A stretch of DNA of 18,664 bases from Escherichia coli. GTDB lineage: Bacteria; Pseudomonadota; Gammaproteobacteria; Enterobacterales; Enterobacteriaceae. The DNA lies in the NCBI RefSeq assembly GCF_003334255.1, contig NZ_QOWU01000073.1, one strand, 5' to 3'. The stretch's first letter is position 1, and every line of letters starts with the position of its first letter. Shown piece by piece: positions 4,288 to 5,142 of the stretch. The position numbers and the translations under genes are program-made. The notes beneath the pieces are model-generated. The model had not been told where the DNA came from and did not search any database. It saw nothing but the letters and a program-made list of their open reading frames with translations.

Positions 4288-4578
4288 CCCGACCCGGGGG
4301 GGGGGATCATCCGGCGTAAAAAACGATCGCTTTGGACACCGCGCCCCCTCTCACGCAGAGAAAAAATTCCCGTTTCAGGGCAGTTAACATGTTAACTGGC
4401 TGCCCGGGCATTTTTGCGGTTTTTATCTTTATTATTCAGTTTGTTGTGCGGAAAAAATGTTAACTGGCTTTTTCAGCAAATGTTAACCAGGCAGCAGTTA
4501 ACATTTGCGGCATGAGACGCCGGGAAAAATGGGCTGAACCATACCCGGCTGAGTGCGTTCTGGACCCGGGAGGAGGCT
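4288..4578. promoter_or_regulatory. Putative cos / terminase-recognition region between HNH and terminase small subunit
   Basis: 291-bp noncoding gap with a G10 run (4296-4305), GTTAAC-centred palindromes and repeats (4381-4508) and AT-rich tracts. Position matches where HNH-associated cos phages carry cos. Confidence 0.45.
4381..4508. repeat. GTTAAC-containing palindromes and direct repeats (candidate TerS binding sites)
   Basis: Perfect 18-bp palindrome CAGTTAACATGTTAACTG at 4381-4398. AATGTTAAC recurs at 4456-4464 and 4479-4487. 12-bp inverted arms GCAAATGTTAAC (4476-4487) and GTTAACATTTGC (4497-4508). Confidence 0.6.
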
Positions 4579-5142
4579 GTGCTGACAACGCAAAAACGAA
4601 AATTTGCGCTGGCGCTCATGTCCGGGAAAAACAAAACAGCGTCAGCCATTGCCGCCGGTTATTCGGCGAAGACCGCCAGGGTTAAAGGCTCGCAGCTGGC
4701 AAAAGATCCGGAGGTGCTTGCGTTTATAGCCCGTAAACAGTGCGAGACGGTGGAGGTGGATGAGGTTCCTGTTTACCGGCAGAAAAAATCAGAGCAGGAG
4801 GATAAACCCCGTCGCCGTGAGGCGGCTGCAATACCACAGCCGGACGAAAACAATCCGGAGATGCCACCGTCCGCGGTGATGTCTCCTGGTATTGAATATA
4901 TGGAGGATGGTCTTCCCGATCCGGTGAAAGCCATGGGGCGGATCCTGGTGGAAAACCTCTGCATTGATCCGAAACTGGCACTGGATGCGGCCTGGCGTCT
5001 GGCGCAGTTCACGCACCATAAAAAAGGGGATACCGGGAAAAAATCGGCAAAAGGTGATGCCGCGAAAAAAGCGGCTAACCGTTTTGCGGTGCCACCGCCA
5101 CCCCGACTGGTGGTGAATAACGATAATGAGGGCAACGGATGA
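4579..5142 (+). CDS. terS: Terminase small subunit (P27/Terminase_2-like)
   Basis: N-terminus LTTQKRKFALALMSGKNKTASAIAAGYSAKTARVKGSQLAKDPEV matches the conserved small-terminase motif. Start is GTG with AGGAGG only 2 nt upstream, so exact start is uncertain. Stop overlaps the terL start. Confidence 0.8.
   Translation: MLTTQKRKFALALMSGKNKTASAIAAGYSAKTARVKGSQLAKDPEVLAFIARKQCETVEVDEVPVYRQKKSEQEDKPRRREAAAIPQPDENNPEMPPSAVMSPGIEYMEDGLPDPVKAMGRILVENLCIDPKLALDAAWRLAQFTHHKKGDTGKKSAKGDAAKKAANRFAVPPPPRLVVNNDNEGNG

Follow-up and report, generated by a model that had tools for sequence, protein, structure and literature searches.

At which codon, and by what kind of initiation, does translation of the small terminase subunit (TerS) begin in the DNA-packaging module of a Stx-phage-type lambdoid prophage? 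The question arises in a stretch of Escherichia coli DNA of 18,664 nucleotides (hereafter the window), in which an initial annotation placed a Shine-Dalgarno (SD) motif too close to the first start codon of TerS, and took the true initiation codon or mechanism to be uncertain. The packaging genes of the module are arranged as follows.

3922-4287, + strand: HNH endonuclease
Between 4287 and 4579: HNH-TerS intergenic region, 291 bp
4579-5142, + strand: TerS (small terminase), 187 aa, Pfam Terminase_2 and PHROG 641
5139-5142, + strand: ATGA, shared by the TerS stop and the TerL start (ORF coordinates)
5139-6800, + strand: TerL (large terminase), from PHROG matches
6864-8801, + strand: protease-capsid fusion, 645 aa, with the portal genes next

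This is a common locus. The 913 bases around the TerS start are 94-99% identical to the corresponding DNA of BP-4795, YYZ-2008, 2851, 1717 and many Stx1a, Stx2a and Stx2c phages, and positions 4380-4800 were found in 1253 of 5426 complete E. coli genomes (~23%). TerS sits directly upstream of TerL, whose start overlaps the TerS stop by 4 nt, and in profile searches it matches PHROG 641 over residues 1-183 (E = 1.8e-68) and Pfam Terminase_2 (PF03592) over residues 2-57, aligned to model positions 1-56 (E = 2.1e-8). The linker between its putative N-terminal DNA-binding region and its C-terminal part (residues ~60-105) is highly variable: when the window protein was compared with P0001 (E. albertii, 202 aa), P0036 (138 aa) and P0010/P0016, the differences found were a tandem duplication of 15 residues in one homologue (DKPRRREAAAIPQPD), a deletion of 49 residues in another and a replaced segment in others. 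Further along the module, the portal profile PHROG 2271 (859 profile positions) is split over two adjoining, overlapping reading frames, 9013-10377 covering positions 1-451 and 10374-11435 covering positions 562-859, which may reflect either a pair of genes that some annotations fuse into one, or a portal gene interrupted by a split or a frameshift.

The anatomy of the TerS start was established by direct reading of the sequence, together with translation of 4288-4700.

4513-4515, + strand: in-frame TGA, upstream limit of the TerS reading frame
4568-4573, + strand: GGGAGG, conserved SD core (register B), kept in long-spacer relatives and separated from the GTG by 5 nt
4571-4576, + strand: AGGAGG, overlapping SD (register A) specific to the window lineage, separated from the GTG by 2 nt and from CTG 4582 by 5 nt
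4579-4581, + strand: GTG, predicted start of TerS and first canonical initiation codon downstream of the TGA, with a homologous ATG in relatives
4582-4584, + strand: CTG (Leu2), annotated start in the phage YYZ-2008 records (L001 coordinates)

The bases at 4568-4576 read GGGAGGAGG, followed by CT at 4577-4578, the GTG and the CTG. The 21 codons after the TGA contain no ATG, GTG or TTG, and the first in-frame ATG is found only at 4618 (Met14). Much of what the initial annotation had read from these letters is borne out: AGGAGG does end 2 nt upstream of GTG 4579, this GTG is the first in-frame start with no in-frame ATG upstream of it in the translation from 4288, and the conserved N-terminus begins right there, since the match to PHROG 641 starts at residue 1, that to Terminase_2 at residue 2, and the TerS homologues all begin M-L-T-x-Q-K-R-K. 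The verdict that the SD is too close survives only in part. Two GGAGG cores overlap within the purine run, and the complaint is correct for the one at 4572-4576, 2 nt from the GTG, but not for the one at 4569-4573, which has a normal spacing of 5 nt. The former lies outside the functional range of ~4-9 nt and the latter inside it, making the 5-nt distance ordinary and the 2-nt distance not. In E. coli, pairing with the CCUCC core was found to predict translation efficiency best at a distance of 7 nt (Hockenberry et al., PMC5303271). As an internal control, wherever else in the window a gene is led by a perfect GGAGG, the core stands 4-8 nt from the start (5 nt for GTG 6864, 6 for GTG 11432, 4 for ATG 11768, 4 for ATG 12969 and 8 for GTG 17662). 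To find GGAGG in front of a genuine start is no surprise, and the motif is not enriched across the window as a whole (52 found versus 42.7 +/- 6.5 expected). The protease-major capsid fusion frame likewise starts with GTG, behind AGGAGG and a 5-nt spacer (6854-6866, caggaggctgatGTG), and GTG starts with a strong SD are common in the module: counting from TerS (4579), they occur at 5 of the 10 putative + strand genes, provided that every reading frame is taken to open at its mechanically listed first start.

Closely related phages say little about which of the two cores matters. A first IMG/VR scan yielded relatives of at least 94% identity only, in which the start region is invariant and hence uninformative on the start; across the close relatives GGGAGGAGGCTGTG is unchanged in 83 of 83. 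Informative, diverged variants were obtained from a further scan that took a distant homologue as its seed, and from single-protein look-ups. Nine independent variants, the window counted among them, have the window's locus layout and form a long-spacer set, with the following start regions (SD core, spacer, start codon).

Window: GGGAGG-AGGCT-GTG
L090: GGGAGG-ATGCT-GTG
L177: GGGAGG-ACACG-GTG
L088: GGGAGG-TGCCA-GTG
L089: GGGAGA-AGATA-ATG
L172: GGAGG-AAAGA-ATG
L176: GGAGG-AAATA-ATG
L175 and L178: GGAGG-GAGGA-ATG

All nine place a GGAG(G) core at a distance of exactly 5 nt before the counterpart of codon 4579, which is GTG in four (window, L090, L177 and L088) and ATG in the other five, and codon 2 is CTG in every one. 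The register A position reads GGGAGGATGCT in L090, GGGAGGACACG in L177 and GGGAGGTGCCA in L088; from L090, the closest diverged relative, the extra AGG of the window is one spacer base away (AGGCT versus ATGCT). In L175 and L178 a second GGAGG is present independently, at a distance of 1 nt from the ATG. The pattern extends over the family: of 45 distinct start regions, 35 have ATG at the homologous codon and 10 have GTG, the two alternating freely inside each sub-lineage, and a clear SD core, where one is detectable, lies 5-10 nt upstream. In the larger Klebsiella/Enterobacter/Salmonella branch TerS begins GGAGGGtgtaaacATGTTAACAGCG (M-L-T-A-Q-K-R-K), with GTG in place of ATG in L112, L116 and L117, and ~20 distinct short-spacer relatives have ATG as codon 1 and TTA as codon 2. 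With relatives keeping ATG or GTG at this codon and a GGAG(G) core 5 nt upstream, standard SD-led initiation suffices, and the uncertainty about codon and mechanism that had been read into the locus finds no support; that reading was accurate as a description of the sequence and over-read as an interpretation.

The unease about the start does match an actual disagreement among public records, which annotate three different starts for the same TerS sequence. The GTG is used by NCBI PGAP (WP_000958372.1, E. coli genomes), BP-4795, LC567821 and ON470597; a CTG 3 nt downstream by YYZ-2008 gp50, in both GenBank and RefSeq (NC_011356.1/FJ184280.1, position 27812 = window 4582); and a CTG 45 nt upstream by Lys8385Vzw (MT225100.1, position 185 = window 4534). 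The TerS proteins of Stx/lambdoid prophages (WP_000958372.1, BP-4795 ORF54, YYZ-2008 gp50) are 92-100% identical to that of the window and have an identical start region, so that these records differ from it in the annotated start only and in nothing biological.

Initiation at CTG 4582 would be directed by AGGAGG of register A, which stands at an ideal 5 nt from this codon, and it is what both YYZ-2008 records imply; CUG is able to initiate at 1-2% of the AUG level (bioRxiv 10.1101/063800). We nevertheless consider it very improbable. Every relative has ATG or GTG directly before its CTG or TTA codon: in five the codon preceding the CTG is an ATG with its own SD 5 nt upstream, and the ~20 distinct short-spacer sequences show ATG followed by TTA. 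CUG is also 5- to 100-fold weaker than GUG (bioRxiv 10.1101/063800), and a start at 4582 would yield at most a minor product, one residue shorter.

A start at another in-frame codon, either the upstream CTG 4534 from which the MT225100 annotation derives a protein of 202 aa or the downstream ATG 4618, the first in-frame ATG, has still less to recommend it and can be given hardly any probability. Neither codon is preceded by an SD. One-base indels occur upstream of the GTG in close relatives and in L090 (L077 and L090 have a 1-nt insertion between 4534 and 4579), so that the frame is not coding there and an N-terminal extension is ruled out, and the segment upstream of the GTG is not alignable in L088, L089 and L172. 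On the downstream side, residues 2-13 are conserved as protein, with T3, K6, A10 and A12 invariant and third-position changes synonymous. Initiation must therefore take place no later than codon 2, and a start at Met14 is excluded for a functional protein. On these comparisons the two CTG annotations, of YYZ-2008 gp50 and of the Lys8385Vzw terminase, are in conflict with the conservation of ATG or GTG and with the indels in relatives.

Three further candidates in the same region were rejected. The reading frame 4512-4685, considered for coupling into TerS, does not share the TerS frame, and in relatives indels and stops interrupt it; an upstream ATG of YYZ-type variants (at the equivalent of window 4560-4562), considered as the start of a coupling frame, is out of frame; and a direct repeat of GACCCGGGGGGGGG (4291) and GACCCGGGAGGAGG (4563), which would make the SD a copy of a G run, is absent in L090 and L089 and was treated as chance.

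What remains is the effect of the doubled SD. Paired with the 3' end of 16S rRNA, GGGAGG of register B gives a duplex of -9.2 kcal/mol and AGGAGG of register A the same value alone, rising to -11.5 kcal/mol as GGAGGAGG; considering hybridisation alone, the extended register A is thus ~2.3 kcal/mol more stable. A competition between this register, 2 nt from the GTG, and the productive one might lower TerS synthesis and give a tuned, weak start, which the initial annotation had considered plausible: ribosomes could be held unproductively, or CTG 4582 could be put in the P site, and GUG starts yield 10-100% of AUG (bioRxiv 10.1101/063800). The constancy of GGGAGGAGGCTGTG in the close relatives and the independent origin of a second GGAGG in L175 and L178 fit such tuning, but invariance among near-identical prophages may reflect recent common descent in place of selection, and relatives of the same architecture have a single SD and often an ATG, which indicates no consistent pressure for a weak start. 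Since ATG and GTG, and single and double SD, alternate freely among relatives, a tuned start is without comparative support, and we regard it as unlikely. Occlusion of the SD by mRNA structure was considered as well and rejected, the fold of 4530-4630 being no more stable than that of shuffled sequences (z = -1.32).

It is thus highly probable, judging from sequence comparison, that TerS is translated from GTG 4579 by ordinary SD-directed initiation, with the conserved GGGAGG 5 nt upstream as the SD. The data show the anatomy of the start, the conserved codon position and 5-nt spacing, the interchange of ATG and GTG, and where the family profiles begin. As to the register that the ribosome uses and the level of TerS expression, we infer that the 16S 3' end would pair with 4568-4573, placing the GGAGG core 5 nt from the start, that the ribosome would initiate at GTG 4579, and that AGGAGG would be an overlapping pairing register, incidental as a by-product and at most a modest modulator. 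TerL would then start at the ATGA overlap with the TerS stop, which suggests translational coupling of TerL to TerS. The start itself needs nothing unusual: it is the first start after an in-frame stop, it has a 16S-complementary SD at a standard spacing, and its position is conserved. It shares with canonical SD-led GUG starts of E. coli the GGAGG core 5 nt from the first GUG (5-6 nt in window genes 6864 and 11432), and differs from them by the purine run GGGAGGAGG, with its second register 2 nt from the start.

The DNA upstream of the start turned out to be more interesting than the start itself. Its features are these.

4340-4372, no strand assigned: conserved cos-proximal block CGCGCCCCCTCTCACGCAGAGAAAAAATTCCC, found from E. 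coli to Burkholderia phages
4383-4390, - strand: copy of ATGTTAAC, in a putative TerS recognition array
4389-4396, + strand: copy of ATGTTAAC, same array
4457-4464, + strand: copy of ATGTTAAC, same array
4480-4487, + strand: copy of ATGTTAAC, same array
4497-4504, - strand: copy of ATGTTAAC, same array
4389-4391, + strand: ATG followed by TTAAC, putative fossil of an ancestral TerS start, from alignment with short-spacer relatives

The cos-proximal block was compared between window 4340-4372, L180/L181 (MT225100), L005 (Bcep176) and L007, and CGCGCCCCCT followed by CTCACGCAGAGAAAAAATTCCC is common to phages from E. coli through Burkholderia. The Lys8385Vzw record (MT225100) has its first base at window 4350 and its last at window 4349, and the records of Bcep176 and PhiBt-E264.1 end 10 nt further left, at the equivalent of 4340. 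Since this 10-nt offset matches the 10-nt 3' overhang of the HK97 cohesive end (PMC11331095), the cohesive end of the window phage is probably CGCGCCCCCT, 4340-4349. A run of ten G (4296-4305) follows closely on the HNH stop, ~35 bp to the left of where the cos cut is presumed; the relatives examined (L004, L089, L090, L172, L092 and L117) have G7-G9 runs at this position.

Between this block and terS, ATGTTAAC occurs five times, always within 4383-4504, against 0.28 occurrences expected in the whole window and none of 200 shuffles matching it (0/200). Copies of it form a perfect 18-bp palindrome at 4381-4398, and repeats of this type are conserved between the cos-proximal block and terS in relatives. 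The half-site of the repeat varies in step with the putative helix-turn-helix of TerS, whether the lineage has a long or a short spacer; residues 25, 32 and 35 of the protein (nt 4651-4653, 4672-4674 and 4681-4683), at the putative recognition helix, were examined beside the repeats. Proteins with K-T-A-R at residues 31-34 go with GTTAAC (the window, L089, L090 and L177, and the short-spacer L112, L116 and L117), and those with K-S-A-R go with RTAAAC or GTTTAY (L088, L172, L175, L176, L178 and the Klebsiella type), so that residue 32 is Thr in the one class and Ser in the other. This co-variation, over few independent lineages and switches, suggests that TerS reads the ATGTTAAC repeat sites. 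A rival candidate site for TerS is the G plus A-tract at 4360-4366, which is conserved throughout the family and corresponds in position to the DNA bound by the TerS of HK97, 15-29 bp from the cut (PMC11331095). HK97 gp1 itself has no detectable relation to the window TerS.

The array at 4383-4504 looks like a recognition region of the lambda cosB type. Lambda cosB consists of the sites R3, I1, R2 and R1 between cosN and the start of Nu1, whose winged helix-turn-helix binds there while IHF bends the DNA. The window likewise has repeated sites in two orientations, interrupted by a T-rich stretch, in the ~230 bp that lead from the cos-proximal block to the terS start. Unlike lambda, its TerS comes from an unrelated family, and the candidate IHF site in the T-rich spacer was rejected: no match to the IHF consensus WATCAANNNNTTR was found within 4288-4578 with one mismatch allowed. 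A search for a promoter or terminator between HNH and TerS gave nothing above shuffle expectation. With HK97 the locus shares an HNH gene adjoining cos, the correspondence of the 10-nt overhang with the 10-nt record-end offset, an A/T tract ~20-30 bp from the end and, in the short-spacer relatives, a terS ATG ~50 bp from the end, while gp1 of HK97 is not detectably similar to the window TerS (BLASTP E = 0.91) and the window lineage has an extra segment of ~190 bp with the ATGTTAAC repeats. The G1P proteins of SF6 and SPP1 (PDB 2CMP, 4ZC3 and 3ZQQ) belong to the same Pfam family, Terminase_2, and their N-terminal helix-turn-helix motif AAIxAGYS...A..G aligns with the window protein; a PDB sequence search with TerS gave weak matches only, to the DNA-binding domain of SF6 G1P (E = 0.19-0.78). 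SF6 and SPP1 package by a pac headful mechanism, in contrast to the window locus, which looks cos-type with an HNH partner.

Alignment offers a clue to how the array arose. Positions 4340-4396, ending in cagttaacATGTTAAC, are homologous to the cos-proximal block of short-spacer relatives together with their TerS SD, ATG and the TTA-AC of codons 2-3; within them, the segment cccgtttcagggcagttaacATGTTAAC (4360-4396) is the homologous counterpart of the TerS SD, ATG and codons 2-3 of L092, L004 and L117. By this homology ATG 4389 would be the codon at which TerS began ancestrally, preserved as a fossil. The SD before it, originally GGAGGG, has decayed to CAGGGC, and a lineage-specific segment of ~190 bp separates this ATG from the present start, GTG CTG ACA. 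The mini-frame of 24 codons opened by ATG 4389 was rejected as a conserved coding sequence, for in L090 it stops after 4 codons. The more distant phages Bcep176, PhiBt-E264.1 and IME307 have the short layout too, with GTTAA motifs around the ATG, and the short form is thus probably ancestral.

We tentatively propose, as a scenario that is possible while falling short of probable, that the TerS ribosome-binding site is a secondary construction, in which a recognition palindrome was expanded by ~190 bp, a new SD and start were gained, and the doubled register was left over. In the ancestral layout, of the Klebsiella, Salmonella, Pseudomonas and Burkholderia types, the TerS start would have been centred in a GTWAAC-ATG-TTAAC palindrome ~50 bp from the cos end, probably itself the recognition site of TerS. 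A segment of ~190 bp, specific to the Stx-phage lineage of E. coli, would have turned this site into the five-site, lambda-cosB-like array of ATGTTAAC, leaving the fossil ATG at 4389. TerS would then have acquired its new SD and start, GTG CTG ACA being a decayed copy of ATG TTA ACA, and the doubled SD register would be a leftover of this rebuilding that may damp TerS output.

To settle where so widespread a prophage gene starts matters very little by itself. The repeat array, its co-variation with the recognition helix and the putative fossil start together provide a testable model of DNA recognition by the terminase of Stx phages, and the ATGTTAAC array with the fossil start may serve as a model for the origin of a multi-site recognition region.
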